Source of the DNA: Candidatus Latescibacterota bacterium
GTDB lineage: Bacteria > Latescibacterota > UBA2968 > UBA8231
NCBI GenBank assembly: GCA_965243025.1
Contig: CBDETY010000003.1
Span: 2,304,001 to 2,368,000 of the forward strand
DNA: 64,000 nucleotides
Direction: 5' to 3'
Part shown: positions 8,987 to 43,136 of the stretch, one piece after another
Layout: each line of letters starts with the position of its first letter
Numbering within the stretch: the first letter of the stretch is position 1
Position numbers and translations under genes: made by a program
Notes under the pieces: generated by a model
The model's database searches: none
The model's input: only the letters and a program-made list of their open reading frames with translations
What the model was told of the DNA's origin: nothing

Positions 8987-10882
8987 TCAGGCGGCTCGTC
9001 CGTTCTGCACAGGTGAGGCGGTCAGCTCGAGGGCGCCGCCGATCTCGACCTCGATGTCGAGGCTGGCGGCGCCTTTGTCGACGGGAAGCTGCAGGCTCCG
9101 CCGCTCCTCGAGGAAGCGGTCTCGAACCCCCGCCTTCAGCCGCCCGGCCTGCCACCCCTCCAGCCGGCAGCAGAGCCGGGTCCGGCTGCTGCCGTTGAGT
9201 ATCCACAGGCGCCGCACCTGCGGCGGCAGCTCGAAAACCCCGGGTGCATCCGGCGTGAAGATCCCCCACACCCCCTCTTCCCCCTTGCAGATGGAGAACA
9301 GCGAGTGGTGGGCATCGGCCCCCAGAACCCGGTGGCGGCCGAACAGCAGCAGGTCCCGGTGCTCGCGGTACCACCCGAGCCAGGCGCGAACCGCGCGCCG
9401 GTGCTCCCGAGGAAGGGCGCGCAGGTCCATCGACAGCATGGGGACGGCGCTGGTGACCAGGCTGGCCATGAAGCGGGCGACGTTCTCCACCGGCTCCTGC
9501 GGCAGCCAGTAGGCGGGGTCGGTGTGCGGGGCGACGTTGCCTTCGCGGCCGGCCCCGGGATCGAGGATACAGCTCCTCAGGCGGGTGCACATGCGGCGGA
9601 TGTGGTCGCCGTCGAAGGGGGCGTCCTGGGCGCGGTGGCTGGTGGCGAAGGGGCGCGTCGCCAGGGTCGAGTAGTTCATGCGGAACTCGATCAGGGCGTC
9701 GGGGCGCACCGCCGTGATCGAGCGGTGTATCCCCGCGAGCAGCTCCCGCACCGCTTCGCCATACTCCTCGATGTCGTGGGCGTGCGCCCCCTGGCAGGGC
9801 AGGGCGGCGCGCTCCATCAGGGGATCGATGAAGTCGGTCTTGAGGCCGTCGACCGGGTAGGTGCGCAGCAGGTGCCCGACCATGCGGGCGGCATAGGCGC
9901 GCACCCGCGGGCTGCGCGGGCAGAGGAACTGCTCGGGGTTCTCCTGCCCCTGCGGGTGAAACAGGTGCCCGGCCACGAACGGCTCCCCGGCGATCTCGCC
10001 GAGGCGGAAGACCGGCGCGCACCAGAGCAGGATTTTCAGGCCGGCCTCCTGCACCTGGCGGGCGAGCCCGCCCATGTCGGGGAACTTGCTCTCGTCGGCA
10101 ATGTAGTGGCCGGTCTCCTCGTCGAAATGGTCGCGCACGAACCAGCCGTCGTCGACGATGATCGACCCGAACCCCCAGTCCCTCAGCAGCGGCGCCATGC
10201 CGAGGATGTAGGCGGCGTCGACGTTCCCCTTGATCCCGTACCAGGAGCACCAGACCGGGTCCCAGGCCGCCGCCGGTGCCCCGGCGATCCGCACGCGGTG
10301 GAAGCGGTCGTGCTCGCGGGCGAAGGCGCGCACCGCGTCGAAGAGGTGGCGCGGGACACGAGACAGGTAGATGCCGTCCCGCCACTCGGAGGTGCTGAAG
10401 GAAGGGCGCTTCAGCTCCACCGCCGAGTCCTCGTCGTAGCAGCTCTGGCGGATGTCGGCAACGCGGACGTGGTCCATGAAGCCGATGCAGAAGCGGTTGG
10501 CGTCGTCGCGGTTGAGCAGGGCGATGAAGGGGAAGGACCAGGTGGCGAAGGTGCGCTCCTCCACCCCCCAGGGCAGGCTGATCAGGTCGGTCTTGCCGAT
10601 CGCCTCGTGGAGGGCCGGCACGAACACGCGGTGCAGGTCGACCGCCGGCACCCCGGTCGAGACGGTGCAGTCCACGACCTCGAAGGGGGCGCCGTCGCGG
10701 CGGCGCAGCGACCAGCCCAGGAGCCGGCTGTCCGCATCGGGGGCGGCGACCTCGGTTCCCCACTCGTAGAGGCCGCCTGCTCCCTGCCCCGGGGAGACCG
10801 GGTCGAACCCCTCGACGGGGGGATCCGTTTCGATCGATACGGTCAGTGTCAGACCGGCGAAATCGAAGGTGTGGGGCATCAT
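8987..10882 (-). CDS. Alpha-galactosidase (GH36-like)
   Basis: WCSWY, IVDDGWF, KFPD, DGLKTDF, LIEFR. Confidence 0.8.
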   Translation of the reverse strand: MMPHTFDFAGLTLTVSIETDPPVEGFDPVSPGQGAGGLYEWGTEVAAPDADSRLLGWSLRRRDGAPFEVVDCTVSTGVPAVDLHRVFVPALHEAIGKTDLISLPWGVEERTFATWSFPFIALLNRDDANRFCIGFMDHVRVADIRQSCYDEDSAVELKRPSFSTSEWRDGIYLSRVPRHLFDAVRAFAREHDRFHRVRIAGAPAAAWDPVWCSWYGIKGNVDAAYILGMAPLLRDWGFGSIIVDDGWFVRDHFDEETGHYIADESKFPDMGGLARQVQEAGLKILLWCAPVFRLGEIAGEPFVAGHLFHPQGQENPEQFLCPRSPRVRAYAARMVGHLLRTYPVDGLKTDFIDPLMERAALPCQGAHAHDIEEYGEAVRELLAGIHRSITAVRPDALIEFRMNYSTLATRPFATSHRAQDAPFDGDHIRRMCTRLRSCILDPGAGREGNVAPHTDPAYWLPQEPVENVARFMASLVTSAVPMLSMDLRALPREHRRAVRAWLGWYREHRDLLLFGRHRVLGADAHHSLFSICKGEEGVWGIFTPDAPGVFELPPQVRRLWILNGSSRTRLCCRLEGWQAGRLKAGVRDRFLEERRSLQLPVDKGAASLDIEVEIGGALELTASPVQNGRAA

Positions 10883-10990
10883 GCTCCTCCCGGCAGGGGC
10901 CCGGGGTTGGCCACCCGCGCCCCGCTGACATCATCGTTGCGTTCGCCCCCCGGAAAATGCCAAACGGATGTCCATGGGGCGGGACTGCCC

Positions 10991-11776
10991 TCAGCCCACG
11001 ACCGGCCAGGCGCCCCGGATGCTGCCCTCGTGGCGAACCAGGTCCCCGAAACCGTCCGACTGCGGATCGGGCGTCACCGGTTTCTCCCCGTCGAGATAAA
11101 GCATCCCCACCTCCCCGGGAGGCAGGGAATCCACCAGTTCGCGGGCCTCTTCGAGGGCATTCAGCCACTTCCTTTTCAGGATCCCCAGATCGAGGGGCTC
11201 CCGCAGGTCCAGGCGATCGAGGTCGGCCTGGGCGTAGGCCGCGTGGCGCCCCGCGTGCTCGAGCAGGAACCCGGGAGTGAACCCAGGGTCCTTTCCGCAG
11301 GCGGCCCAGGCCAGCGAGCCGAGGTGCAGGTAGGAGCCGTGGAGGTGAAGGATGTCGACGAAGTCGCGGATCTCCTGCCTGCCCGCCAGGGCCAGAACCT
11401 TGTTGACCGCGGCGTCGGCATGGTGCAGGCGGTACCCGCACTGGACGTCTTCCACAACCGGGAAGAAGCGGAAGGCGCTGTCCTGCGCCCACTCGATCCG
11501 CAGCTGCTCCCCTTCCGCCGACAGGACCGCGCGGTAGAAGGCCGGGGTGCGCAGCAGCCACTTCAGCTCGAAACCCGCCTCGCGCAAGGTCGTTGCATCC
11601 GCTTCCGCGCACAGGGCCACGCTGTCGGCGAGGTCGTGGAACAGGTCGAGATCCCCGGAGAAGCGGGGCGTATCCCGTTCCCGATGGAGGACCGTGGCCC
11701 CGGCCAGGTAGCTGTCGGGACTGCGGTTCGCGGCGATGGTCCTGAGCGCCCGCGTCTGGATCGGGGTCAGGGGCAC
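10991..11776 (-). CDS. AbiEii/AbiGii-family nucleotidyltransferase toxin
   Basis: YLAGATVLH..RFSGDLDLF, NKVLALAGR..RDFVD; GTG start overlaps the end of the upstream small ORF. Confidence 0.75.
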   Translation of the reverse strand: MPLTPIQTRALRTIAANRSPDSYLAGATVLHRERDTPRFSGDLDLFHDLADSVALCAEADATTLREAGFELKWLLRTPAFYRAVLSAEGEQLRIEWAQDSAFRFFPVVEDVQCGYRLHHADAAVNKVLALAGRQEIRDFVDILHLHGSYLHLGSLAWAACGKDPGFTPGFLLEHAGRHAAYAQADLDRLDLREPLDLGILKRKWLNALEEARELVDSLPPGEVGMLYLDGEKPVTPDPQSDGFGDLVRHEGSIRGAWPVVG

Positions 11777-12042
11777 AGTCTTGCCGCGAGAAGGAAACCC
11801 CGGCGGCCACCGTGCTGCCGCAGGCCGCGGGCAACCTCGGGTACGTCCTCCAGGGTGACCTTCAAGTCGGATGGCATGTACCAGAAGCATTGCGCGTGGA
11901 AGTCGCGGAAGGCGCGGCGGGCTTCGCGGACCCGGACCATGTCGAGGGCATCCTCCGAGGACAGGTGCCGGCGGCTCTTCCTGCCGCCTTTGCGCCCGAT
12001 CTCCGCCAGCCAGGCGCTCACGTTTGTTGAAGGGGTATCCAT
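11767..12042 (-). CDS. Small putative antitoxin (N-terminal KGG-like motif, C-terminal CFW domain)
   Basis: About 91 aa ORF overlapping the toxin start; AEIGRKGG and AQCFWY motifs; alternative start 12051. Confidence 0.65.
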   Translation of the reverse strand: MDTPSTNVSAWLAEIGRKGGRKSRRHLSSEDALDMVRVREARRAFRDFHAQCFWYMPSDLKVTLEDVPEVARGLRQHGGRRGFLLAARLCP

Positions 12043-12059
12043 TGTCAACATATCCTTAT

Positions 12060-12074
12060 CATAAGCCGCTTATG
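12060..12074. promoter_or_regulatory. Palindromic operator upstream of the TA pair
   Basis: Perfect CATAAGC-C-GCTTATG inverted repeat in an AT-rich stretch just upstream of the antitoxin start. Confidence 0.55.
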
Positions 12075-12189
12075 TTAAAGCAAGCCCAATCCCGTCCCGC
12101 CCGCAAGAGGACCCGATGCAACTGTCCGACCTCGATGCCCGGCGGTTCGCACCGCGAAACCAACCGCCCGGACGGCCGGAGCGCCCCTA

Positions 12190-13074
12190 CTATTCCACCG
12201 AGTTGGCGGCGATGAACGCCTCCATCTCGCGAAATGCCCGGTCGCGCTTCTCCCGCAGATCGTCCCGGGGGCAGATCGCCAGGCAGGTGGTCAATCCGCC
12301 GTCCACGGTGATCTCCTGGCCGGTGACAAAACGGGATTCGTCGGAGGCGAGGTAGACCGCGAGGTAGGCGATGTCGACCGGTTCGCCGACCCTCTCCAGG
12401 GGCTGGAAACTCCAGTGCTCGATGCGGCTGCGGTCCCCGAAGCGCTCGACGAACTCGGCCCGGGCTTCGGGCTTGAGGTTTTCCGGAACCAGGTCGCGGT
12501 CGCCGCCGAGGTAGATGGCCCCGGGACTGATGACGTTGACGCGGATGTTGAAAGGGGCCAGCTCCGCGGCCAGGGCCCGGGTGCCGCCGATGATTCCGGC
12601 CTTTGTGGTGGCGTACACCGTGGCGCCCGGACTGCCCTCGATCCCGTGGACGGAGGCGACGTTGACGATCGCCCCCCGGCCCCGCGCCTTCATCAGGGGG
12701 ACCGCCAGCTGACAGCCGAGGTGCATGCCGCGCAGGTTGGTGTCCATCAGGCGGTCGTAGTCCTCGTCCTTCACCTGCTCGACCGGATCGCCGATGCCGA
12801 TGCCGGCGTTGTTGACGAGGATGTCGAGGCCGCCGAAGCGCTCTTTCACGGCGTCGAACAGGCCCTCCATCTGCCCGCGCACCCCGACATCGGTCGGGAC
12901 CGCCAGGACCTCGCCGCCCGCCTCTTCGATTTCGGATTTCACCCGTTCCAGCTTCTCGGCGGAGCGCGCCGCGATGGCGAGCCTCGCCCCGTGCCCGGCG
13001 AACAGCATGGCGATGCCGCGGCCGATGCCCTGGCCGCCCCCGGTAATGACGGCGATCCTGTCCTTGAGTCTCAT
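12190..13074 (-). CDS. SDR family oxidoreductase
   Basis: [28 protein letters not shown]. Confidence 0.92.
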
Positions 13075-13182
13075 GTGCTCTTGTCTCTGGCTTCGGAAGT
13101 TATGCTTGGGATCCGTCGATCAGAATGATTCTTGGTCTCGAAACTTGCTGCGGAATTTGCAGCCTCGCGCAAGGGCTTCCCG

Positions 13183-16460: not shown

Positions 16461-16640
16461 TTTTCCGACTCCTTTTGCAGCGGCGCCGGATCCCCCGGCG
16501 CGCACCATTGCCTGAACCAGGTCGCAGTGCCTGCCCCGGGAACAACGGTTCTCAGGTGCCCTGCGAACCGTGCAGCCCCGGCGCCCCTGCCCGCTGCCCG
16601 CGCCTTCCTCCGGTCCCGTCGCAAACGCGGGACCCCGGAT

Positions 16641-17804
16641 CTACTGGATGCCGAGGTCGGCGTTGATCCCGGCCTGGTACCCCTCGAGCTCGCAGCGTTC
16701 GATCTCCCGCAGGGTCACCGGGCGGCCGTGCCATCCCGACTCGTACACCGCTACGCAGATCGCCTGCGCCTCGAACCCCTCCATGCCGTCGACCTCGGGC
16801 CGGCCCCCGCTGCGCACGGCGCGGGCGAAATCCACCAGCTCGACGGCGACCGGACTGGTCACTCCCCCGGGGAACAGCCGCTCTTCCGCCTCTTCGTCGA
16901 GGCCGGAGCGGAATTCGGCGACGAGCTCCTCGTTCGACAGGTGCTCGCCCTGGCGGGGCCACAGGCCGGTCCCCCAGTCGATGCAGCCCTCGCTGCCGTA
17001 GAGAACGCGGCTCCGAAACCCCTGCCCCGGGGCAGACCCCTGCCACGTCCACTGGACCACGACGTCGTCCTCGAAGGAGACCAGGGCGTGCGACGAGTCC
17101 TCGACGTCGACCGCCCAGGTGCCTGAGCGCGCGGCCACGTCGTCGTAGCGGAACGGCTCGAACTGCCGGGTCACTGCGTACACCTCGCGCGGCTGCAGGC
17201 CGAGGTGGTAGCGGAACATGTCGGCGAAGTGGACGCCGCCGTCGAGCACCCAGCCGCCCCCGGAGTGCTGCCGGAAGCTGCGCCACCCCCACTTTCCCAG
17301 CGACTCGGACACGTCCTGCCAGTAGAAGGTGCGCGGCCTGCCGATGCGGCCGCTGCGGACCGCCCAGTTGCGCGCCCTCTCTTCGGGAGAGCGGCGGTAC
17401 TGCTCGGCAACCGCGAGCAGGCTGCGGCTGCGGGTAGCCGCGTCGAGGATGCGGCGCGCCGCCCGCATCGTCACCCCCAGCGGCTTCTCGATGAGGACGG
17501 CGAGGCCGGCTTCGAGGCAGGGGACGGCGACCTCGTGGTGGGCGGAGTGCAGGGTGCAGATGTCGACGGCCTCGAGCTCCGGGCCGCTCCCCAGCAGGTA
17601 CTCGAGCCGCTCGAACAGGGCCGGCTCCGTGCCCTGGACCTCCGCCACCTGGGCCGCCCGCTGCCGGGCGCGGTCGGTGTCCGGGTCGCAGACGGCGACG
17701 ATTTCGAGGGGGCGGCGGTCAGCCCCGCGCAGCTCCTCGAGCCCGCTCACGTGGGCGGAGGACATGCCGCCGCATCCGACCAGCGCAGTCCGTACCGGTT
17801 CCAT
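16641..17804 (-). CDS. Gfo/Idh/MocA oxidoreductase
   Basis: VGCGGM, EKP, LDGGVHFAD. Confidence 0.9.
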   Translation of the reverse strand: MEPVRTALVGCGGMSSAHVSGLEELRGADRRPLEIVAVCDPDTDRARQRAAQVAEVQGTEPALFERLEYLLGSGPELEAVDICTLHSAHHEVAVPCLEAGLAVLIEKPLGVTMRAARRILDAATRSRSLLAVAEQYRRSPEERARNWAVRSGRIGRPRTFYWQDVSESLGKWGWRSFRQHSGGGWVLDGGVHFADMFRYHLGLQPREVYAVTRQFEPFRYDDVAARSGTWAVDVEDSSHALVSFEDDVVVQWTWQGSAPGQGFRSRVLYGSEGCIDWGTGLWPRQGEHLSNEELVAEFRSGLDEEAEERLFPGGVTSPVAVELVDFARAVRSGGRPEVDGMEGFEAQAICVAVYESGWHGRPVTLREIERCELEGYQAGINADLGIQ

Positions 17805-21039: not shown

Positions 21040-21180
21040 TCAGGGCGTTTCTTCGATGTCGTCGACCGCCTCTCCCACCACCTCCATGCCGTCCTGCCCG
21101 GCAAGGAACTCCCTGACGGTTTCCCGCAGCATTTCATGGTCGTCTTCCAGTACTACTCGGATGGTCGTGATTCGGGTCAC
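21040..21180 (-). pseudogene. Truncated NarL-family response-regulator fragment (46 aa)
   Basis: VTRITTIRVVLEDDHEMLRETVREFLAGQDGMEVVGEA then stop; aligns to the N-terminus of the regulator at 28461-29096; GAAGGA RBS. Confidence 0.7.
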
Positions 21181-21239
21181 TCCTTCGCCGCGGCAACAGA
21201 GGCAATATCGGGCACGCCACTCCTGCCCGGGAACTCTCA

Positions 21240-23984
21240 TCAGTGCCGCACGAGCTGATAATCCCGCGCGTACACGAAGTCGTCGTCGTGGTCGCTGTTG
21301 TGACATTCCAGACAGGTCCGTTCCGACGGAAGGCGCCGGACCGTCTCGCTGGAAGGACGCTCGATATGGATGCTTCCAGGTCCGTGACAGACCTCGCACT
21401 GCACGTTTGCCAGGCTGCGGTCCGGTTCGAGAATCGAGAACCCGCTGTCGCGGTTCAGCCCGGCCACGTGGCATTTCACGCACTTGGAAAACTGGTGGCG
21501 GTGCGCGTCGAGCAGGGTCGTATAGGCATCGGCGTGCCGGGTCGACTGCCACTGTTCCCACTGCGCCGAGTGGCAGGTACGGCATTCCTGCGTCCCCACG
21601 TACTTCCTCTCGTCGTGAACCGGGTCCCACTCGAAGAGCGGCGGGATGTTTCCTTCCAGCAGCTCCTCCTGTTCGGCCACGGACCGGTAGTAGGAATCGA
21701 GGTAGGCTTTCATGTCCTCGTCTTCGCGCATCTCGTACAAGGCCAGCAGGTAGTTGCCCTCGAACGAGGTGAATCGGCCCTCTCCATCTATGCCGATATC
21801 GACGTGATGCAGGCCGTACACGTCTGCGTTCGCGTAGATGACCAGCACGTCGTCGAGGAAGCCGTACATCGATTCAGTCCGCTTTCCCCCCTGGCCGTCG
21901 GCGCGTATCACGTCGAGGGCGGGGGCGTGGTGCCCGGTGGTGATGACCAGGTCCAGGGCCGGGAACTCCTGCACCAGGTCATGGACGAGGCCGGTGTTCA
22001 GCTCGCCGATGACCCCGACGAAGTCCGCCTGCTCCCTCAGCCCGGGCAGGTATTCCCGTACCGTCTCCTTCGGGTCGGCTGTCTCCAGGTCCCGGGTGTT
22101 GTCTTCATACAGCGAGGGCTCGATGGCCACCGTCGCCTGCAGCAGACCAATGAAAGCGATCGTGTACGGTCCCACCTCGATGGCGTACGTCGGCGCGCCG
22201 ACGAGGGAACCCTCGTGGTACAGGTTGGCGTTTATCAGGGGCACGGGACTGTTGCGGGCCTGGGTCCGAAGAAACTCGCTGCCGTGGTAGGTCTCGTTGC
22301 GCGCGATGACGGAAAAGCCGTACTCCATCCGCCTCAGCCCTCCGAGGTAGGTCGCCAATTCGCTTTCCGTCAGGGCGTCCATTGCCGGAACGTCCTGTTC
22401 GTGGGGAAAGGCGTTTCCGGCATCGATGACGGCCACGCTCCTGCGCCTTTGTTTTATCTGGTCGATGAGGGTGGCGCGGCGGGTGATCCCGCCCGACATG
22501 TTGGACTTGCAGCCGCAGGCTTCGAGAAAGCTCCTCGTTTTTCCGGTCACGATCAGGGTGATCGTGTCTACCGCGGTCTCCGACCGCGACCACGGCAGGC
22601 GGGGCGGTTGATCACCGGGCACCGGACCGTCGGCGTGCCACAGAGGCTCCGGAGGAGGCGAACCGGGGCCGGGGTTGGTGCGTTCGTACAGCGCCGACAG
22701 AAGATCGGCGCCGGCGACCCGCTCGATCGCGCCTCCCAGATCGACGCCCTCCCGTCGCCAGTAGGCGTACTCCAGAACGTCCTGCAGATCCTGTTCCCCG
22801 TCCGTGCTCCTGGAGATCTGCATATCGAGGTAATGGGCGAGGGCCAGGCCGCTGTGCCTTATCAGCGACTCTTTGGCGGCGCTGTGCGTGTAGTAAGTCT
22901 CCGGGACGATTCCCTTGCTGAAGTGGGACACCCGGAAGCGGTTGTGATTCCTGTACGCTTCGTACAGGTACGGCTCCAGATCGGAAATGACCCCGTGCTT
23001 CCGCAGGCCCTGGAGACCCAGGTACATGCTGGCCCCTTCCACGAACCAGAAGTCGGATGCCTGGGCCAGTTCCATGCGGTGGGGGGCGTGCCGCAGCCAT
23101 CGGTAGGCGATGCGGGTGGCCACCGAGAGCCACCTTCCCGGGGTGGCCGGCTCCATTTCCCCGGCTTGGCCATAAGACGTGCTTGGAATGTGAATGCTCA
23201 TTCCATCCGCCGTCTTGGGGGTCAGAATGACCGTGTACGGTTCTGGAACCGGCGCCTGCAGGGCCCTCGTCATGTACTCGTAGAGGCTCCATGCTCTTCT
23301 GGCCAGCTCCTCCTGCCGTGCGCTCGACCACCCGTCGTACAGCACAACGCGCACGGGAGCCGTCCCGATGGTCATCTCTCGCGCGGTCAATGCGCCCAGG
23401 GCTACTGCGCCGTTGACCAGATCCTCCAGGCCGGTGCCGTACAGGCGCGGTTCGTACGTGCCGGCTTCACCCTTGGCCGGGATCCAGGTGGTCTCGACGG
23501 CCCAGCCTCCGGGTCCCTGGATCGAAACCGCAATGTGATCGAACTGCCCATAGGGAACGAGGAAGAGGTTGCGGCCGGAAACGAGATGGAAATCCTCCCC
23601 CAGGTAGCCGCTGACCTCGGTGGAATGGCGCCCGTGCCCGCCGCCGATCGGCCGTCCCGGCCGCACCCGGTACTCGGCGCGCAGCTCGCTGCCCGGCGCC
23701 TTCACGCGGTAGGTCGTCCGGCCGGTGGCCGATACCCGTTGCGCATGCGGAACGGGCCTGGCCTCGGAGTCGCGGAGTTGCAGCCCCGTAACGCCGATGT
23801 ACGGGTCGGCCTCGAAGGCCTGCAGAAAAACGGAATCGGCCTCGATGCCGCTGATCCTCAACCCGACCGCTACCGACTCCGCGTCAGGCGATTCTACTTG
23901 CACTTGGTACGCGAGCCGCAGGCCCGGGTCCGAGCAGGCGGAGAAAAGCAGCACGGCTGCGGGGAGGAAGCGAGAAAGGATCAT
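21240..23984 (-). CDS. Lipoprotein fusion: M61/gluzincin-like domain lacking HExxH, 5'-nucleotidase/metallophosphoesterase-like domain with CGC motif, and tetraheme cytochrome c (c554-like)
   Basis: LFSAC lipobox; WFVEGASMY; LEACGC..SGGITRRAT..DAGN; CRTCH, CVKCH, CEVCHGPGS, CLECH. Confidence 0.75.
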   Translation of the reverse strand: MILSRFLPAAVLLFSACSDPGLRLAYQVQVESPDAESVAVGLRISGIEADSVFLQAFEADPYIGVTGLQLRDSEARPVPHAQRVSATGRTTYRVKAPGSELRAEYRVRPGRPIGGGHGRHSTEVSGYLGEDFHLVSGRNLFLVPYGQFDHIAVSIQGPGGWAVETTWIPAKGEAGTYEPRLYGTGLEDLVNGAVALGALTAREMTIGTAPVRVVLYDGWSSARQEELARRAWSLYEYMTRALQAPVPEPYTVILTPKTADGMSIHIPSTSYGQAGEMEPATPGRWLSVATRIAYRWLRHAPHRMELAQASDFWFVEGASMYLGLQGLRKHGVISDLEPYLYEAYRNHNRFRVSHFSKGIVPETYYTHSAAKESLIRHSGLALAHYLDMQISRSTDGEQDLQDVLEYAYWRREGVDLGGAIERVAGADLLSALYERTNPGPGSPPPEPLWHADGPVPGDQPPRLPWSRSETAVDTITLIVTGKTRSFLEACGCKSNMSGGITRRATLIDQIKQRRRSVAVIDAGNAFPHEQDVPAMDALTESELATYLGGLRRMEYGFSVIARNETYHGSEFLRTQARNSPVPLINANLYHEGSLVGAPTYAIEVGPYTIAFIGLLQATVAIEPSLYEDNTRDLETADPKETVREYLPGLREQADFVGVIGELNTGLVHDLVQEFPALDLVITTGHHAPALDVIRADGQGGKRTESMYGFLDDVLVIYANADVYGLHHVDIGIDGEGRFTSFEGNYLLALYEMREDEDMKAYLDSYYRSVAEQEELLEGNIPPLFEWDPVHDERKYVGTQECRTCHSAQWEQWQSTRHADAYTTLLDAHRHQFSKCVKCHVAGLNRDSGFSILEPDRSLANVQCEVCHGPGSIHIERPSSETVRRLPSERTCLECHNSDHDDDFVYARDYQLVRH

Positions 23985-24016
23985 GCCGGTTTTCTCCTGC
24001 GTTCTCTTTTCCCGTT

Positions 24017-24601
24017 CTATATGGATGGACCGAGAAGCGCTTCGATCACCGCGGCCACACTGTCCGCGGCGGTCACCACCCCGCGCTGCTCCAGGTGGAT
24101 CGTCCCATCGCGAGCGACGAGCACCGACAGGGGAATTCCCTTGTCGACGCCATACTGTCGCAAGAGGCTGGTGTCCGCGGTGGCGGGCATCAGGATCGGG
24201 TAGGGGACCTCGAGGTTCTCGACCCACAGCTCCACCGCGAGACGGGTGGAGGATACGGCTATCCCCCATACATCCAGCCCGCGTTCCCGGTACCGGGTGT
24301 AAAGGTCGTTGAGGACCGGCTGTTCCTCCCGGCAGGGACCGCACCAGGTAGCCCAGAAGTTCAGGAGCAGCACCTTGTCCCGTTGCGCCGGGACCTTCAG
24401 GGTGTCGCCGCCAAGCGAGGCAATAGCAAAGCCGGGAGCTGTTTTGCCGGGCGCTGATTTAGCCGGCGCGGGTGGCTCCTCGGCAGCGGGTGCGCAGGAA
24501 TGCAAACAGGCCGCCAACCCCAGGCATGAGAACGCACGGGCGATTCTGCCGAGCTTTATCCAGGCGGTGTTTCGGGGCGGCCTGTTTTGGCGCGTCTTCA
24601 T
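24017..24601 (-). CDS. TlpA/ResA-family thiol-disulfide oxidoreductase lipoprotein
   Basis: LLNFWATWCGPC, GIP cis-Pro, LHSC lipobox. Confidence 0.88.
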   Translation of the reverse strand: MKTRQNRPPRNTAWIKLGRIARAFSCLGLAACLHSCAPAAEEPPAPAKSAPGKTAPGFAIASLGGDTLKVPAQRDKVLLLNFWATWCGPCREEQPVLNDLYTRYRERGLDVWGIAVSSTRLAVELWVENLEVPYPILMPATADTSLLRQYGVDKGIPLSVLVARDGTIHLEQRGVVTAADSVAAVIEALLGPSI

Positions 24602-24603
24602 TC

Positions 24604-24693
24604 TCAGAACGGATACACCCGGTCGCCGCCATGCCCGAGGACGGAGTCCATGCCGAACAAGGCGATTACGGCTGAAAGAAGGACCACATGCAT
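24604..24693 (-). pseudogene. Truncated fourth copy of the tandem paralog (29 aa)
   Basis: MHVVLLSAVIALFGMDSVLGHGGDRVYPF* near-identical to the starts of the adjacent copies; GGAGG RBS lost. Confidence 0.85.
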
Positions 24694-24701
24694 GGTCAAA
24701 C

Positions 24702-25652
24702 CTATTGCGAGAAACTCGCCTTGATGCGCGCCCACGAGTCGGGTGCGACCGCGGTACCACCACCACCACCACTGTCGACGCCGTTCGCCGAAAGCAGAAT
24801 GCCATCCATCATGACAACGTGGTCCCTAATACGACCCTCATCGTAGTGCCCGACCATATGAGTTTCTCGCGCCCTATTGCTGCCCGGCCCATGGGTGGCA
24901 GGCTCATCGAAATCGCCTACAAACACCTGAAACCCGACAATCCGTCCCGCACTCAGATCCGAGACGACGCTGTTTTCCGGCTCCCTCCGGATCAACAGGT
25001 CGAACGGGGTGACGAAGAACTCGGTGATCCAGACAACTGGATTTTCCCCGACTACGGAGCCGCCACCGTCTCCATAGGGAGGATATCCCCACCAGTTCTC
25101 ATCCCACCACATTTCCAAAACAGACAGGCCAACGTGGGAAGTCTCTCGACGAAGCGGCACAGCGCTGTAGAATTGGGACCCTTGACCCATCAGTCCGGAA
25201 TCTTCCCCCTTGTCGTCACGTCTGGCAACGCTTTCATCCCATCCCGGTGAACCGTCATGATCACCATCGACTTCAATGGAGAGATGATCCTCGCCCTCTC
25301 GGTCAAAATAATTGTCAGACTTTTCATCCTCTCCCACATAAACGTCATCTATGCAGATGGCGCCTACATAGATCCGGTTGGAAGCGTCGTTCCATCCCAG
25401 CCAGATTCGAAAATCGAGGTCGGACGGATTGTATCCCGTCACCCATTTGTCTCGGTCGAACGCCGTGAAGTCCAAGCTCGTGAGGGAAGGCTCCCCGAAC
25501 AGCTCCTCCCAGTCTTCTATGGATCCATCGGTCACGTCGATCGCGTTCTCGTCGGTTATCTCGTAGAACGGATACACCCGGTCGCCCCCGTGCCCGAGGA
25601 CGGGGTCCATGCCGAACAAGGCGATTACGGCTGAAAGAAGGATCACATGCAT
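24702..25652 (-). CDS. Secreted CBM9/DOMON-like protein with C-terminal TAV..SWARIK motif, copy A
   Basis: Signal peptide, DGSIEDW, WLGWN..IYVG, IEVDGDHDG, TAVAPDSWARIKASF. Confidence 0.7.
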   Translation of the reverse strand: MHVILLSAVIALFGMDPVLGHGGDRVYPFYEITDENAIDVTDGSIEDWEELFGEPSLTSLDFTAFDRDKWVTGYNPSDLDFRIWLGWNDASNRIYVGAICIDDVYVGEDEKSDNYFDREGEDHLSIEVDGDHDGSPGWDESVARRDDKGEDSGLMGQGSQFYSAVPLRRETSHVGLSVLEMWWDENWWGYPPYGDGGGSVVGENPVVWITEFFVTPFDLLIRREPENSVVSDLSAGRIVGFQVFVGDFDEPATHGPGSNRARETHMVGHYDEGRIRDHVVMMDGILLSANGVDSGGGGGTAVAPDSWARIKASFSQ

Positions 25653-25661
25653 GACAGCCTC

Positions 25662-26621
25662 CTATTGCGAGAAGCTCGCCTTGATGCGCGCCCACGAGTC
25701 GGGTGCGACCGCGGTACCACCACCACTGTCGATGCCGTTCGCCGAAAGCAGAATGCCATCCATCCAAGTATCGGTGTCACCAATAACGTCACGAAGAGTG
25801 CCTCCGTAATAGCTACCCAACACATGAAGTTTTCCCGCTCTATTTCCACCAGGCCCACTGATTGCCGGCTCGTCGAAATCTCCGATTGACACACGGAACC
25901 CGACAATCTGCTCCGCACCCAGATCCGAGACGAGGCTGTTTTCCGGTTCCTTGCGAATCAACATGTCGAACGGGGTGACGTAGAACTCCGTGACCCAGAC
26001 CACGGGATTTTCTCCGGCGACCGAGCCGCCACCGTTCCCGTATGGAGGGTATCCCCACCAGCTCTCACCTTCAAAAAAGGTCTCGAAAAAAGGAATTCCG
26101 ACGTTTGACGCTTCACGGCGAACCGGTACCCCCGAATAGACTTGCGCCGCCTGACCGTATTTTCCGGAATCGTCGCCTTCGTCAAGATTGACCTCATCCC
26201 ATTGCGGGAAACCGTCATGATCGCCATCAATCATAAGAGTCACCGAATCCTCACCCTGACGCTCCAGGTACTTAAAAGATCTTTCCTCCTCGCCTATGTA
26301 CCTGTCGTCAATGCAGATAGCGCCTATGTAGATGCGGTCGGAAGCCCCGTTCCAGCCCAGATAGATGCGGAAGTCGAGATCGGACGGGTTGTATCCCATG
26401 CTCTCACCACTAAGGAAGTAGGAGTCGAACCCGGTGAAATCCAGGCTCGTGAGGGAAGGCTCCCCGAACAGCTCCTCCCAGTCTTCTATTGTTCCATCGG
26501 TCACGTCGATCGCGTTCTCGTCGGGTATCTCGTAGAACGGATACACCCGGTCGCCCCCATGCCCGAGGACGGGGTCCATGCCGAATAAGGCGATTACGGC
26601 TGAAAGAAGGATCACATGCAT
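25662..26621 (-). CDS. Secreted CBM9/DOMON-like protein, copy B
   Basis: Same motifs as copy A; TAGGAGG stop/RBS coupling. Confidence 0.7.
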   Translation of the reverse strand: MHVILLSAVIALFGMDPVLGHGGDRVYPFYEIPDENAIDVTDGTIEDWEELFGEPSLTSLDFTGFDSYFLSGESMGYNPSDLDFRIYLGWNGASDRIYIGAICIDDRYIGEEERSFKYLERQGEDSVTLMIDGDHDGFPQWDEVNLDEGDDSGKYGQAAQVYSGVPVRREASNVGIPFFETFFEGESWWGYPPYGNGGGSVAGENPVVWVTEFYVTPFDMLIRKEPENSLVSDLGAEQIVGFRVSIGDFDEPAISGPGGNRAGKLHVLGSYYGGTLRDVIGDTDTWMDGILLSANGIDSGGGTAVAPDSWARIKASFSQ

Positions 26622-26630
26622 GGCAGCCTC

Positions 26631-27587
26631 CTATTGCGAGAAGCTCGCCTTGATGCGCGCCCACGAGTCGGGCTTGACCGCGGTGCCACCGCCGTCGATG
26701 CCGTTCGCAGGGAGCAGAATGCCATCCATCCAAGTATCGGTGTCACCTAAAGCGTCACGAACAGTGCTTCCGTGATGGCTACCCAACACATGAGGTTTTC
26801 CCGCAAAGTTTCCACCCGGCCCATTGACAGCCGGCTCGTCGAAATCTCCGATTGTCACTCGGAACCCGACAATCTGCTCCGCACCCAGATCCGAGACGAG
26901 GCTGTTTTCCGGTTCCTTGCGAATCAACATGTCGAACGGGGTGACGAAGAACTCCGTGACCCAGACCACGGGGTTTTCGCCGGCGACCGAGCCGCCACCG
27001 TTCCCGTACGGAGGGTATCCCCACCAGTTCTCACCTTCGAAATAGGTCTCGAAAAAAGGAATTCCGACGGTTGACGTTTCACGGCGGACCGGTACCCCCG
27101 AATAAATTTGCGCCGCCTGATCATGTTTTCCGGAATCGTCGCCTTCGTCAAGATTGACTTTATCCCATTGTGAAGAACCGTCGTGATCGCCGTCAATCAA
27201 AAGAGTCACCGAATCCTCACCCTGACGCTCCAGGTAGCCGAAAGATCTTTCCTCCTCACCTATGTACTCGTCGTCGATGCAGATGGCGCCTATGTAGATT
27301 TGGTCGGAAGCCCCGTTCCAGCCCAGATAAATGCGGAAGTCGAGATCGGACGGGTTGTAATCCATGCTCTCCCCGGAACTCTGGTAAGAGGTAAAACCGG
27401 TAAAATCCAGGCTCGTGAGAGACGGCTCTCCGAAAAGCTCTTCCCAGTCTTCTATCGATCCATCGGTCACGTCGATCGCGTTCTGGTCGGGTATCTCGTA
27501 GAACGGATACACCCGGTCGCCGCCATGTCCGTGGGCGGCGCCGAAGCCGAATAAGGCGATTACGGCTGAAAACAATATGATGCCCAT
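26631..27587 (-). CDS. Secreted CBM9/DOMON-like protein, copy C
   Basis: Start MGIILFSAV after AGGAGG; TAVKPDSWARIKASF. Confidence 0.7.
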   Translation of the reverse strand: MGIILFSAVIALFGFGAAHGHGGDRVYPFYEIPDQNAIDVTDGSIEDWEELFGEPSLTSLDFTGFTSYQSSGESMDYNPSDLDFRIYLGWNGASDQIYIGAICIDDEYIGEEERSFGYLERQGEDSVTLLIDGDHDGSSQWDKVNLDEGDDSGKHDQAAQIYSGVPVRRETSTVGIPFFETYFEGENWWGYPPYGNGGGSVAGENPVVWVTEFFVTPFDMLIRKEPENSLVSDLGAEQIVGFRVTIGDFDEPAVNGPGGNFAGKPHVLGSHHGSTVRDALGDTDTWMDGILLPANGIDGGGTAVKPDSWARIKASFSQ

Positions 27588-27625
27588 GGCTCCTCCTCGT
27601 CTGGTGTTTAGGACTCGGGAAATGG

Positions 27626-27657
27626 AAGCAGGGGGCGCTGCGCGGCGCCCCCTGCTT
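27626..27657 (-). terminator. Strong hairpin (terminator/attenuator or mRNA-stabilising stem) downstream of the peptide gene
   Basis: AAGCAGGGGGCGC-6 nt-GCGCCCCCTGCTT perfect 13-bp stem; T-run on plus strand, partial U-tract on minus strand. Confidence 0.7.
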
Positions 27658-27735
27658 TTGTGTGCAGGCGATCCAATCATCAGAGGGTCCGAACCCTCAC
27701 CGATCATTGAATCGGCTTGCTTCGTCGCTCTCTTG

Positions 27736-28026
27736 CTAATCGCAGAGGCTGTCGTGGCAACCACCACCACCACCATCGCAAGGCTGGCAGTTCAATGCGA
27801 GAGTCTCGGGGATGCAATCTCCGCTACCTGCGCAGATCTGGTAGTCGCAGGAGGCCGCCGCCGGGGGCACCAGCAAGGGCTCCAGGGCTGCGTACGGCCC
27901 CGAGTTGGTCTCCGTCCCGGTGAACGGGATGAAGGCGAACACCACCCACACGGCCAAGGTGGCGACGAACGCCGCCAGACTGCGCGGCAGGATGAGCCGC
28001 GGCAACGTCGCGATGAGGTCTTTCAT
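27736..28026 (-). CDS. Small membrane-targeted precursor with Cys-rich C-terminal core (7 Cys in 38 aa); possible longer start at 28224
   Basis: MKDLIA.. hydrophobic helix, LLVPPAAA|SCDYQICAGSGDCIPETLALNCQPCDGGGGGCHDSLCD*; in-frame GTG at 28224 has AAGGAGGT SD. Confidence 0.7.
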   Translation of the reverse strand: MKDLIATLPRLILPRSLAAFVATLAVWVVFAFIPFTGTETNSGPYAALEPLLVPPAAASCDYQICAGSGDCIPETLALNCQPCDGGGGGCHDSLCD

Positions 28027-28308
28027 GGTCTTTCGTTCTCCAGTTGAGAATGATTGCGAGTTTTGGCTCCTCTTGGGTGCCCACGGGGCAGCGGCGTGCG
28101 CGTTACCGTTTTTCTTCTCCTTTCCCATGCCCTGGATTTTCTCCCTCCCAGCTCCCGGTGTAGCCTTCGGGATGCCGCGTCGTATCGCGGTGCGGTGTAC
28201 TTCCTGTCGGGCGTTGACGGCCACGGGACGTGACCTCCTTTCCGAGAGCCTTTGGGGGCCTTTCGTTTGTCTGAGAACGAAGATCGCACCGGACAGACGG
28301 CTCCGGTA

Positions 28309-28352
28309 TCACCCGAACGGGTACATTTTTGTCACCCGAAAGGGTACATTTT
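28309..28352. promoter_or_regulatory. Tandem 21-bp direct repeats, each with an ACCC-N4-GGGT palindrome; likely response-regulator boxes
   Basis: TCACCCGAACGGGTACATTTT (28309) and TCACCCGAAAGGGTACATTTT (28332), 20/21 identical, 23-bp period. Confidence 0.7.
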
Positions 28353-28460
28353 CCGAAAAATGGGGGGATTTGCCCGGAAAAACCGGGTTTGCGGGGCTCG
28401 GGACTGCCTGCGGAATTGGCGCCGAACCCGGAAAGGGAGTGACTGCCGCGAAGAGGGCAG

Positions 28461-29096
28461 CTACAGCGAGGTGAGCCCGGTGCTGATCGCGTACCTGGTC
28501 AAAGCGGCAATGCTGTGCAGGTCGAGCTTGTCCATGATGCGTTTCCGGTACGTGTTGACGGTGTTATCGCTCAAGTTCAGTCGTTTGGCAATTTCCGCTG
28601 TCTTCAAGCCCTTGCTGATGAGCCGTACCACCTCGCGCTCCTGCGCGCTCAGTTTCGGGTGGCCGGCAAGGGTCTGCACCTGGTCGTACACGGCCCCGGC
28701 CAACTCCGGGCTCAGGTAGGTGCCGCCGGCGAGGGCCGCCCGGGCGGCCCGCATCACCTCGGCCCCGGTCCGGGCGGCCCCTTTGACCACGTACCCCGAG
28801 GCCCCCGCCTCCAGCATGCCGGCGACGAAGTGCGGTTCTTCGTGCATCGACAGGGCTACCACCTTCACCTCCGGGGCCTGGGCGAGGATCTGGCGCGTCG
28901 CCTCCACCCCGCTCAGGTCGGGCAGGGCTACGTCCATGACCACGATGTCGGGCCGGCAGGCCGCGGCCTGCTCCACCGCGGTGCGCGCGTCCCCGGCTTC
29001 GCCCACCACCTCGAACCCGTCGTCCTGCGCGAACCTGGCCCTCAACGCCTCGCGCATCAGCTCGTGATCGTCCACCAGCAAAACCCGGATCGTCAT
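28461..29096 (-). CDS. NarL/LuxR-family response regulator
   Basis: LLVDDH, VMDVALP, LSMH, GYVVK, C-terminal LuxR HTH (LSAQERE..IAKRLNLSDNTV). Confidence 0.95.
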   Translation of the reverse strand: MTIRVLLVDDHELMREALRARFAQDDGFEVVGEAGDARTAVEQAAACRPDIVVMDVALPDLSGVEATRQILAQAPEVKVVALSMHEEPHFVAGMLEAGASGYVVKGAARTGAEVMRAARAALAGGTYLSPELAGAVYDQVQTLAGHPKLSAQEREVVRLISKGLKTAEIAKRLNLSDNTVNTYRKRIMDKLDLHSIAALTRYAISTGLTSL

Positions 29097-30145
29097 CGGG
29101 AACTCTCCTTTTTCTCGAGCAGCGAGGAAGGAATCGCCAGCACGCAACGCGTGCCCTGCCCCGGCGTCGATTCGATGTCGAAGGAGCCGCCGGCCTGCCT
29201 CAGGCACTCGCCGATGCTGAACAGGCCGAAACCGGTCCCCTGCCGGGGGTCCTCCGGAGAAGGATCGAAGCCGCGGCCGCGGTCGGCGACCGCCAGGCTC
29301 AGTCCGGTCCCGTCGCGGCGCAGGGACACCGCGGCCGCGTCCGTGCCGGCGTGCCGGACGACGTTGAGCAACAGCTCGCGAAGGCAGCGGAACAGCGTAG
29401 CTCGCAGACCTTCCTCCGCCACCTCGCAGTCCCCCTCGCATACCAGGCTGACCCGCAGCCCGTGCTCCTTCTCGAGCTGCCCGGCCAGCGAGTGCAGAGC
29501 GGCGACGAGCCCGTAGTAGTGGAGCTCGGGCGGACTGAGATCGAAAACCAGCGTGCGCAGTTCTTCCATCGTCCGCTCGAGCAGGCCGTCTATGTCGTGG
29601 AGCAGGGTCTGGCGTTCCTTCTCGTCCGCCTGCCGCAGGTCCTCGATCTTCATCCGCGACGCGGCCAGGGTCTGGCCGGCGCGGTCGTGCAAGTCGGCGG
29701 CAATGCGGCGGCGCTCGCGGTCTTCGACGGCGACCAACTCCGCCACCATGCGCCTTGCCTCGGTGACGTCGCGGACGATGCTCTGGTAGCCGCGGACGCT
29801 GCCGTCGGCGGCGCGCCGCACCACGTTGGTCAACAGGCAGTCGAGGCGGCGCCCGTCCCGGGTTACGAAAACGACCTCGTAGTCGCGGACGTACCCTTCG
29901 CGCTCGATCCTTTCCTGGTAGCGGGCGCGGTCTTCGGGATTGGCGTAGACGCCGAGGATGTTCATGCCGAGGAACCGTTCATGGGGCCAGTCGAACATTT
30001 CGCTCGCCGCGTGGTTGGCTTCGAGGATGGTCCCGTCGCGCGCGGTGACTATCATGGCGTCGTGGCACTCCTCGAACAGCTGGCGGTAATCCTCCGCGTT
30101 CAGCCGACCGCTCCCTTTACTCCGCTGTCGCTTCTGCCCACTCAT
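29093..30145 (-). CDS. Cytoplasmic PAS-domain sensor histidine kinase (HisKA_3 type)
   Basis: PAS/PAC (..RDVTE), ERRRIAADLHD H-box, ELLLNVVRHA, DRGRGF, GFGL; no transmembrane segment. Confidence 0.92.
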   Translation of the reverse strand: MSGQKRQRSKGSGRLNAEDYRQLFEECHDAMIVTARDGTILEANHAASEMFDWPHERFLGMNILGVYANPEDRARYQERIEREGYVRDYEVVFVTRDGRRLDCLLTNVVRRAADGSVRGYQSIVRDVTEARRMVAELVAVEDRERRRIAADLHDRAGQTLAASRMKIEDLRQADEKERQTLLHDIDGLLERTMEELRTLVFDLSPPELHYYGLVAALHSLAGQLEKEHGLRVSLVCEGDCEVAEEGLRATLFRCLRELLLNVVRHAGTDAAAVSLRRDGTGLSLAVADRGRGFDPSPEDPRQGTGFGLFSIGECLRQAGGSFDIESTPGQGTRCVLAIPSSLLEKKESSR

Positions 30146-42253: not shown

Positions 42254-43114
42254 GTGAAGAAATTCGGATCAGGCGACTACACTTACAGAGCCGTGGAGGG
42301 ATGGGGCCTTGGGCCGGAAGGGTGGGATTTCGGCGTCGTGTCGTCTATGGCGACCGACTCACAGGATCGCGTCTACATCATCGACCGGGAGCCGAACCCG
42401 GCGATCGTCGTGCTGGACCGATCCGGCAAACTGCTGAACAGCTGGGGGCAGGATTTCTTCAAGGTCCCGCACTCAATTTGGATCAGTCCCGATGACATCG
42501 CTTACATAACGGACTGTGAGTTGCACACGGCAACCGTCCATACCCTGGAGGGAGAGCTGGTTGCAACGCTGGGTACGCCGGGCACAGCTGGAGAGCCCGG
42601 CAAGCCTTTCAACCGTCCAACCTGGGCCGTCCTTGGAAATAACGATGATCTCTATGTGAGTGATGGTTATGGACAGAATCTCGTTCATCGCTTTTCCACG
42701 GATGGAGAATTGCTGCGCACGTGGGGTGGAGATGGCACGGATCCGGGACAGTTCGATACCCCGCATTGCCTTCGCGTGGACAAAGACGACCGGGTGCTCG
42801 TCCTCGATCGCACCAATGCGCGAATTCAGATATTCGACGCCGAGGGGAATTTCCAACAGCAGTGGACGCACTTGTTTGACGCCAACGATCTCTTCATCGA
42901 CAGCGATGATGTCGTCTATCTCGCCGAGTCCCCGCGGCGAATCAGTATCCTCGATCTCGAAGGGAACGTAATCACCCAGTTTGGAGAAGAAGGTGAGGGG
43001 CCTGGTCAGATGGTCGATCATCCCCACGGTATCTGGGTGGACTCCCGCGGCGATATCTACATGTGTGAGGTCCCCCGCACGCCGAATCGGCTGACGAAGT
43101 ATGAGCGCGTGTAA
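42254..43114 (+). CDS. NHL-repeat protein, copy 2
   Basis: Colinear paralog of 4644-5504 with lower-GC codon usage. Confidence 0.88.
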   Translation: MKKFGSGDYTYRAVEGWGLGPEGWDFGVVSSMATDSQDRVYIIDREPNPAIVVLDRSGKLLNSWGQDFFKVPHSIWISPDDIAYITDCELHTATVHTLEGELVATLGTPGTAGEPGKPFNRPTWAVLGNNDDLYVSDGYGQNLVHRFSTDGELLRTWGGDGTDPGQFDTPHCLRVDKDDRVLVLDRTNARIQIFDAEGNFQQQWTHLFDANDLFIDSDDVVYLAESPRRISILDLEGNVITQFGEEGEGPGQMVDHPHGIWVDSRGDIYMCEVPRTPNRLTKYERV

Positions 43115-43136
43115 ATGACAAGGGAATGACACCACC

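Follow-up and report, generated by a model that had tools for sequence, protein, structure and literature searches.

A small Cys-rich peptide gene paired across several phyla with the gene for a CGC-tetraheme lipoprotein carrying a dead M61-type peptidase fold

Background

Some cysteine (Cys)-rich bacteriocins come with their own thiol-disulfide oxidoreductases, for example bdbA/bdbB in the sublancin operon, and in these cases a small secreted Cys-rich peptide is encoded beside its own disulfide catalyst. A second described arrangement concerns methylamine dehydrogenase (MADH): according to the accessible part of the report, MauE has for its active site a disulfide-forming CGC loop, which works with the thioredoxin-fold protein MauD on the six-disulfide MADH small subunit, and this subunit needs both MauD and the heme protein MauG (10.64898/2026.03.05.709764). 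In addition, a 'UshA-like, CxU' (COG0737) entry is found in the tables of three selenoproteome papers, whose accessible text states no function for it and whose supplements may hold more; the corresponding family NF041198 is itself named in one review table, as far as the accessible text goes. Here we analyze a block at positions 21040-30145 of a 64,000-nucleotide (nt) stretch of DNA (hereafter, the window) from a Candidatus Latescibacterota bacterium, whose own genome is 6.8 Mb in size and 96% complete, and we focus on two of its genes:

27736-28026, minus strand: Cys-rich peptide gene, 96 amino acids (aa), hydrophobic N-terminal segment, 7 Cys
21240-23984, minus strand: tri-domain lipoprotein gene, 914 aa, CGC at residue 490, 4 CxxCH motifs

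Co-occurrence of the peptide and the lipoprotein

A scan of genome contigs with the single lipoprotein sequence as the query yielded no relatives, whereas alignment-based scans recovered them. The latter found a relative encoded in 476 of 586 candidate stretches from species genomes and in 505 of 600 from metagenomes, and the best 80 of each were kept. Most of the kept loci have only the CGC-nucleotidase-heme module and no M61-like domain. We ran a profile hidden Markov model (HMM) of the peptide over 176 loci (the duplicates L081-L084 were dropped), and a hit was counted when it had E < 1e-3 and lay on the same strand within 1.5 kb of the tri-domain gene. The HMM matched at 18 of the 30 tri-domain loci (13 downstream and 5 upstream of the lipoprotein gene), with a spacing that was often 0-180 nt or an overlap. 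The number rises to 20 of 30 with the inclusion of L093 and L094, the two cassettes of the same-genus genome G002, which have the order peptide, one CBM9-like gene, TlpA and lipoprotein gene, and in which the peptide lies 1.6-1.9 kb upstream. Note that the HMM was seeded from hits beside tri-domain genes, and the weight of the result comes from the control loci and the genome scan: none of the 98 loci that have the module alone, all with 1500 nt or more of upstream sequence, gave a match, and the window peptide was the sole match (E <= 10) among the 84,010 stop-to-stop open reading frames (ORFs) of its own genome. The confinement of the peptide to loci with the M61-like domain fits the idea that the dead peptidase is a peptide binder.

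Beyond these loci, L096 has a weak match to the HMM (E 0.014), and L007/L117 and L043/L118 have, immediately upstream of the tri-domain gene, small exported Cys-rich ORFs of two further kinds. Truncated or ambiguous loci have the peptide match in 7 of 44 cases. When the tri-domain proteins were grouped at 50% identity, 12 clusters were obtained, six with the HMM peptide, one with the weak match, two with a divergent peptide and three with none. Besides the peptide, no recurrent neighbor across lineages was seen among the tri-domain loci. The peptide and the tri-domain lipoprotein form a conserved two-gene pair across several phyla. The neighborhood search with the fusion protein, which a preliminary description of the block had set as a test of its own proposal, found homologs adjoining small Cys-rich exported ORFs in several phyla, and in this respect the proposal survived.

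That the two genes are mere neighbors with no shared function, with the adjacent TlpA gene serving general cytochrome maturation and the small ORF being unrelated or no real gene, is disfavored and seems to us hardly credible: the peptide family recurs beside the same architecture in half of the clusters and is absent from the control loci and from the rest of its own genome, even if the substitution ratios of the peptide (see below) are not clearly low.

The tri-domain lipoprotein

The lipoprotein is composed of a dead M61-type peptidase fold, a dead 5'-nucleotidase fold bearing Cys-Gly-Cys, and a tetraheme c554-type domain. The M61-like fold comprises residues ~20-440, and the match to the NCBIfam family NF041198 'UshA-like (seleno)protein' comprises residues ~470-914 (E 1.4e-63, 215.3 bits, which is under the curated cut-off of 275). 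Among the Pfam models, Cytochrome_C554 was matched at 5.4e-16, and Peptidase_M61_N, the only one of the M61 models to match, was matched weakly, under its cut-off. A profile of 31 full-length relatives retrieved the M61 aminopeptidase 7xyo (1.9e-5), 5'-nucleotidases (~1e-18) and cytochrome c554 1bvb (4.4e-19) from the PDB. The AlphaFold2 (AF2) model of the lipoprotein has a predicted local distance difference test score (pLDDT) of 80.9, with low values confined to the heme-free C-terminus and the CGC loop; a Foldseek search with this model found the M61 peptidases 4fgm (4.9e-20), 7xyo (3.6e-18) and 8j9c, in the range of 1e-17 to 1e-20, and 5'-nucleotidases at ~1e-16.

The zinc-binding HExxH motif is missing in 31 of 31 aligned tri-domain proteins, and likewise in 31 of 31 locus ORFs, in agreement with the previous suggestion that the peptidase domain is dead. 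The CGC motif is kept in all 31 aligned proteins and reads E-x-CGC in 30 of the 31 locus ORFs. Thirty of the aligned proteins have four CxxCH motifs and one has five, and 24 of the 31 also have a lipobox-like Cys. The dimetal ligand motifs of the 5'-nucleotidase/UshA/SoxB metallophosphoesterases are DxH, GD and GNHE. In the tri-domain proteins these positions are occupied by TGKTR (in others, TGDTN), DAGN and xNEx, and the ligands are thus replaced.

The CGC-nucleotidase-tetraheme module and its relatives

The C-terminal module of the lipoprotein is the Cys form of NF041198, a known but uncharacterized family of UshA-like CxU selenoproteins. Of the 142 loci lacking the M61-like domain, 72 have CG-TGA as the motif, 55 have CGC and 4 have another sequence, and in the remaining 11 the match begins past the motif. 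An in-frame TGA therefore replaces the second Cys in 72 of the 131 M61-less loci showing the motif position (among L006-L176), and all 31 tri-domain proteins have Cys there. A relative lacking the M61 domain, L009, scores 256.6 bits against NF041198, also slightly under the cut-off. Some relatives (L009 at 9830-12805, L086, L010, L008 and L085-L092) have an additional C-terminal region of ~500 aa that is DsbA/Thioredoxin_4-like; the match is over the Pfam cut-off in L009 (27.5 bits) and L086 (28.6 bits), weak and under the cut-off in L010, and not found in L091. Selenocysteine (Sec) at the CG(C/U) site, together with the DsbA-like fusions, points to thiol-disulfide chemistry.

A different chemistry would be the handling of inorganic sulfur, selenium or a thiophilic metal, in which the CGC/CGU site and the SoxB-related fold act and the peptide is a carrier or chelator. 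The module is indeed related to SoxB (TIGR04486, 8e-18 for L009), Sec forms are common, and the hemes would suit electron removal, as hemes do in Sox systems; on the other side, the SoxB match of the tri-domain profile is weak (E 0.077), the dimetal ligands of SoxB/UshA are replaced as described above, no other sulfur-oxidation genes recur beside the tri-domain genes, and carrier proteins are usually conserved whereas the peptide is hypervariable. We consider this chemistry quite unlikely.

The Cys-rich peptide family

The peptides share one design, with a hydrophobic N-terminus, a (P/A)YxxL motif, an AxA motif and a six-Cys core that is hypervariable between the cysteines (the window peptide has seven Cys). 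The conservation of the ORF, on which the preliminary description had made its proposal depend, was confirmed by an alignment of 37 sequences (alignment A5), in which Y45, L48, C65, C71, C80 and C90 are invariant and A56, C60 and C95 are nearly so. The N-terminal helix of the window peptide is long (~19 residues) and has no clear cleavage site directly after it. The gene product is predicted to be a precursor from which a small peptide arises that is either exported or anchored in the membrane; the export assignments in this study are predictions based on hydrophobic N-termini and lipoboxes. The conserved (P/A)YxxL...AxA segment and the variable six-Cys core after it might correspond to the leader and core of a ribosomally synthesized and post-translationally modified peptide (RiPP), if a putative cleavage, for instance at AxA, takes place. 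None of the nine ORFs had a Pfam or NCBIfam hit to a leader protease, to a dedicated exporter or to a modifying enzyme from any known RiPP class.

The close relatives of the peptide form six clusters with 68-86% identity, and a representative library contained eight further short relatives of 83-97 aa. Two giant adhesin-like proteins with Big_9/cadherin repeats and one 603-aa protein were also matched by the peptide; we read these as chance matches of Cys repeats. When 80 distant loci were searched by tblastn with the window peptide, the paralogs and TlpA, only two TlpA matches were obtained. The peptide family surfaced only through a screen of small Cys-rich ORFs, followed by the HMM; the screen revealed the same design beside the tri-domain genes of Poribacteria (L001), Acidobacteriota (L003) and Eisenbacteria (L004). 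Two different tandem copies are present at L100, L103 and L110. At L095 (genome G004), where the order is TlpA, lipoprotein gene and peptide, the matches are located at 12718-12945 and 16548-16769, the second copy being 3.8 kb on. The G002 copy at L093 8082-8363 is missing its last cysteines, which may be due to decay or an assembly error. About 56 nt 5' of the peptide start, the three cassettes of the window, L093 and L094 share a GTAAC-N16-CGTG block (alignment A2), which we take to resemble a promoter for an extracytoplasmic function (ECF)-type sigma factor.

Rather than being a substrate for release, the peptide might stay with the heme lipoprotein permanently as its small subunit, serving to tether it to the membrane or as a chain that is cross-linked or bears a cofactor, as in MADH or quinohemoprotein amine dehydrogenase (QHNDH). 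QHNDH is a parallel with a small Cys-rich subunit. The close adjacency of the genes in the 18 loci and the long N-terminal helix without a clear cleavage site directly after it are both in line with such a subunit, as is the dependence of the MADH small subunit on MauD and MauG in the accessible part of the report (10.64898/2026.03.05.709764). A hypervariable core and tandem unlike copies would be unusual for a catalytic subunit, and no amine-dehydrogenase-like large subunit was seen in the tri-domain loci, so that we regard a subunit role as unlikely.

Proposed function of the pair

The composition of domains, their conservation and the specificity of the co-occurrence were observed directly, whereas the binding and cleavage of the peptide and a direction of electron flow are what we infer. 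The best explanation, which we hold tentatively and with slightly more doubt than confidence, is that the two genes encode an extracytoplasmic pair for the heme-coupled thiol-disulfide handling of a dedicated peptide, either its oxidative folding or the reverse, its reduction. The dead peptidase domain would dock the pro-segment of the peptide, with its conserved (P/A)YxxL and AxA motifs, the CGC center would then exchange disulfide and thiol with the core cysteines, and the hemes would give electrons to the respiratory chain or accept them from it. Where present, TlpA could be an optional thioredoxin-fold helper, acting as a relay or as the reductant of CGC or of the heme-binding cysteines. 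The own genome has one MauE-family gene elsewhere (C3 1859772-1860170, 74 bits), and no match to DsbB or VKOR was found in this 96% complete genome, suggesting that the pair is more likely a dedicated system than a general one. It is conceivable, but should be taken as a conjecture that we rather doubt, that the pair represents a new class of extracytoplasmic thiol catalyst, in which Cys-Gly-Cys (elsewhere Cys-Gly-Sec) is wired to four c-type hemes, and of which one branch recruited a dead aminopeptidase for peptide recognition and matures a hypervariable six-Cys peptide family in at least five phyla. Under this conjecture, the peptides could act outside the cell as signals or effectors whose cores diversify.

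Two further analyses gave little information on the physical association or the expression. In the predicted complex of lipoprotein residues 18-914 with peptide residues 38-96, the scores were 0.00 and 0.02 (the mark being 0.32), which weighs neither way on binding. In the sponge metatranscriptome X1, contig pieces 90-97% alike were found over 21069-21505, 22701-22918, the kinase and one paralog; these come from a relative and may include DNA carry-over, and none of the X1 contigs spans the peptide gene.

Several observations weigh against the proposed function. Five of the 30 tri-domain loci have no small Cys-rich ORF, namely L002, L097 and L115, with short flanks, and L005 and L113, whose flanks are not short. 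No match to the tri-domain gene exists in G001, a 93% complete genome of the same genus, and both tri-domain copies of G002 are interrupted in frame (L093 near 12600 and L094 near 9380), which may reflect decay or an assembly error; judging from this absence and these interruptions, the pair is dispensable. The pairwise ratios of nonsynonymous to synonymous substitution (dN/dS) of the window peptide against the two G002 copies are 0.62 and 0.72, and against L094 over the first 55 codons 0.97, and do not indicate clear purifying selection, with two pairs as a weak basis. The metal ligands of the nucleotidase fold are degenerate. TlpA-family proteins are usually reductants, and TlpA is therefore a poor fit with a purely oxidative role. 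The MauE-family gene is already present for general disulfide formation.

The surrounding block

The other parts of the block, from the kinase to the receiver remnant, are as follows. All genes are on the minus strand with short gaps between them, and the boxes have no strand.

29093-30145, minus strand: histidine kinase with PAS, HisKA_3 and HATPase domains, cytoplasmic (Pfam PAS 5.4e-18, HisKA_3 9.3e-12, HATPase_c 1.9e-13)
28461-29096, minus strand: NarL/GerE-type response regulator with REC and GerE domains (Response_reg 1.7e-24, GerE 2.2e-17), ATG at 29096 after GGAG
28332-28349 and 28309-28326, no strand: two tandem 18-nt inverted-repeat boxes ATGTACCCnTTCGGGTGA (sequence match)
28082-28106, minus strand: GTAAC-N16-CGTG element 5' of the peptide gene, candidate promoter (alignment A2)
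27626-27657, minus strand: G+C-rich hairpin 3' of the peptide gene, 13-bp stem
26631-27587, 25662-26621 and 24702-25652, minus strand: three tandem CBM9-fold secreted paralogs (AF2 and Foldseek)
24604-24693, minus strand: stub of a fourth paralog, 29 codons, ending immediately 5' of the TlpA start (repeat family D3)
24017-24601, minus strand: TlpA/ResA-like thioredoxin-fold lipoprotein with WCGPC and a LAAC lipobox (AhpC-TSA 1.8e-17, Redoxin 1e-16)
21040-21171, minus strand: receiver-domain remnant without a start codon (weak matches to N-termini of the NarL family)

The preliminary description had listed these elements with the same coordinates and order, and all of them are present. The start of the regulator overlaps the stop of the kinase. 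The 141-nt region of the hairpin has a folding z of -4.28, and none of 200 shuffles folded equally well; a simple terminator scan did not report the hairpin, which is possibly a terminator or an attenuator. Elsewhere in the window, a region at 42254-45461 with genes for an NHL-repeat propeller and a GH95 glycosidase has a lower GC content (0.60-0.63) than the surrounding ~0.70, and that of the CBM9-like array is likewise low (0.58-0.59).

At no more than two mismatches, the two boxes are the sole matches in the 6.8-Mb genome, and they are likely the operator of the NarL-type regulator. In G002, the orthologs of the two-component system (74-77% identical for the kinase) adjoin the same aldehyde dehydrogenase gene as in the window, and two perfect 16-nt palindromes occupy the position of the boxes. 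They are followed by a gene for a different small Cys/His-rich secreted peptide, a hairpin, and genes for a CBM9-like protein, a PD40 propeller, a 140-aa receiver and a GH127-like protein; the receiver (L181 9206-9628) is the intact counterpart of the window remnant. The homology between the two regulator loci ends near window position 28260, upstream of the GTAAC-N16-CGTG element. The region from ~28260 to 21172 of the window has been replaced by the cassette, which carries this upstream element as its own, and the receiver remnant is the far edge of the rearrangement. The two G002 cassettes have no adjoining kinase or regulator, and no box at up to four mismatches. The synteny with G002 and the cassette replacement indicate that the kinase, the regulator and the boxes are recent neighbors, although they may now influence the cassette. 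They had been listed as parts of the system; as obligate parts they are not supported, since the syntenic locus precedes other genes in G002 and the cassette was joined to it by rearrangement.

TlpA had also been listed as a part, and the TlpA HMM found a copy beside the tri-domain gene at only 5 of 31 loci (the window, L093, L094, L095 and L001). The window protein scores 92.8 bits (2.2e-26) against ResA, with a cut-off of 170, and 52.3 bits against the TlpA model, with a cut-off of 230, so that neither cut-off is reached. TlpA is a lineage-specific, optional accessory and not part of the core.

The three paralogs are 65-87% identical to one another with a repeat period of 966 nt, and the stub is 90% identical to the N-termini of paralogs P2 and P3 over 31 residues. 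The AF2 model of a paralog (pLDDT 83.7) matched the CBM9 structure 1i82 in Foldseek (7.7e-8, TM-score on the target 0.66), followed at lower ranks by NxrC and the gamma subunit of ethylbenzene dehydrogenase. PF06452 occurs in 13-100% of the members of the nearest atlas clusters, and no Pfam family, PF06452 included, was matched by the paralogs at E <= 0.01. A tblastn search of the own genome matched 109 places; 88 of these have a length of 700 nt or more, and arrays of two to four are frequent (for example, C3 494965-499061 and 5164904-5168855). Neither the G004 locus nor any distant locus has a CBM9-like gene. The paralogs are not special to the block: they belong to a CBM9-fold family of ~100 copies genome-wide, and the array is a local addition tied to the cassette within this genus only. 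We found nothing relevant in the literature on CBM9-fold proteins in a sponge setting.

Two observations on the CBM9-like family are recorded here. Its members (~300 aa) have a conserved C-terminus of the DSW(A/G)RIKASL type, which may be a sorting signal. Six of 64 CBM9-like singletons or arrays, namely those at C3 116852-119805, 458760, 494965, 3346604, 5255357 and 6065649, have a second type of small secreted Cys/His-rich peptide gene (CAYxC...GH...CxC) upstream, and this type also occurs in G002 (L181 ~12900-13100), between the boxes of the regulator and the CBM9-like gene; a small Cys-rich peptide gene ahead of a CBM9-like gene may be a recurrent unit.

It could still be argued that the whole block, from the kinase to the lipoprotein, is one regulated pathway with the regulator, the paralogs and TlpA as integral parts. 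The uniform gene direction and short gaps, the present position of the boxes upstream of the peptide gene, the retention of the order of peptide, CBM9-like, TlpA and lipoprotein genes in the G002 cassettes, and the fact that in both genomes the regulator and boxes precede genes for a small Cys-rich peptide and a CBM9-like protein, with a hairpin between these two, would agree with this, but the lack of the kinase, regulator and boxes at the G002 cassettes, the end of the regulator-locus homology upstream of the cassette's own element, the distribution of the CBM9-like genes and the rarity of TlpA make it very unlikely. The two-gene pair is narrower than the nine-gene system of the preliminary description and, being conserved across phyla, also broader.

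Comparison with known systems

Listings of selenoproteins have included the UshA-like CxU/CxC multiheme proteins since 2008, with no function assigned, and the peptide partnership together with the DsbA-like fusions offers the first testable substrate and chemistry for them. If the proposed function is correct, a heme-linked extracytoplasmic route for forming or breaking disulfides would exist alongside DsbB, VKOR and MauE, and a dead aminopeptidase would have been repurposed for peptide docking. With these peptides, a new family of small bacterial peptides rich in disulfides is defined in uncultured lineages, including sponge-associated ones. The architecture had been thought to be undescribed. 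This stands for the pairing of the peptide and the lipoprotein, of which we found no published description in the literature, nor of the combination of M61, multiheme and peptidase; it does not stand for the CGC-tetraheme part, which is the Cys form of a listed family. NF041198 has CG(C/U) where its 5'-nucleotidase-like fold starts and, after this fold, a c554-type multiheme domain, as does the window protein; the latter differs in the addition of the dead M61-fold domain (~450 residues) at the N-terminus and, with its tri-domain relatives, in having always Cys and never Sec. That domain shares its fold with peptidase M61 (glycyl aminopeptidase) and lacks the HExxH of the latter. Compared with the bacteriocins that have their own disulfide catalysts, the catalysts of the sublancin type are, to our knowledge, DsbA/DsbB homologs without heme, a CxC center or a recognition domain of peptidase fold. 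With MauE, MauD and MauG, as far as described in the accessible text, the locus shares a CGC loop as the proposed disulfide-forming center, a helper of thioredoxin fold, a c-type heme protein and, as the proposed target in the periplasm, a small Cys-rich chain. MauE, however, is a membrane protein linked to quinone and is not homologous to the lipoprotein, whereas the CGC of the window is on a soluble, heme-wired lipoprotein, and the target of MauE is an enzyme subunit, whereas that proposed here is a hypervariable peptide of ~40 residues.

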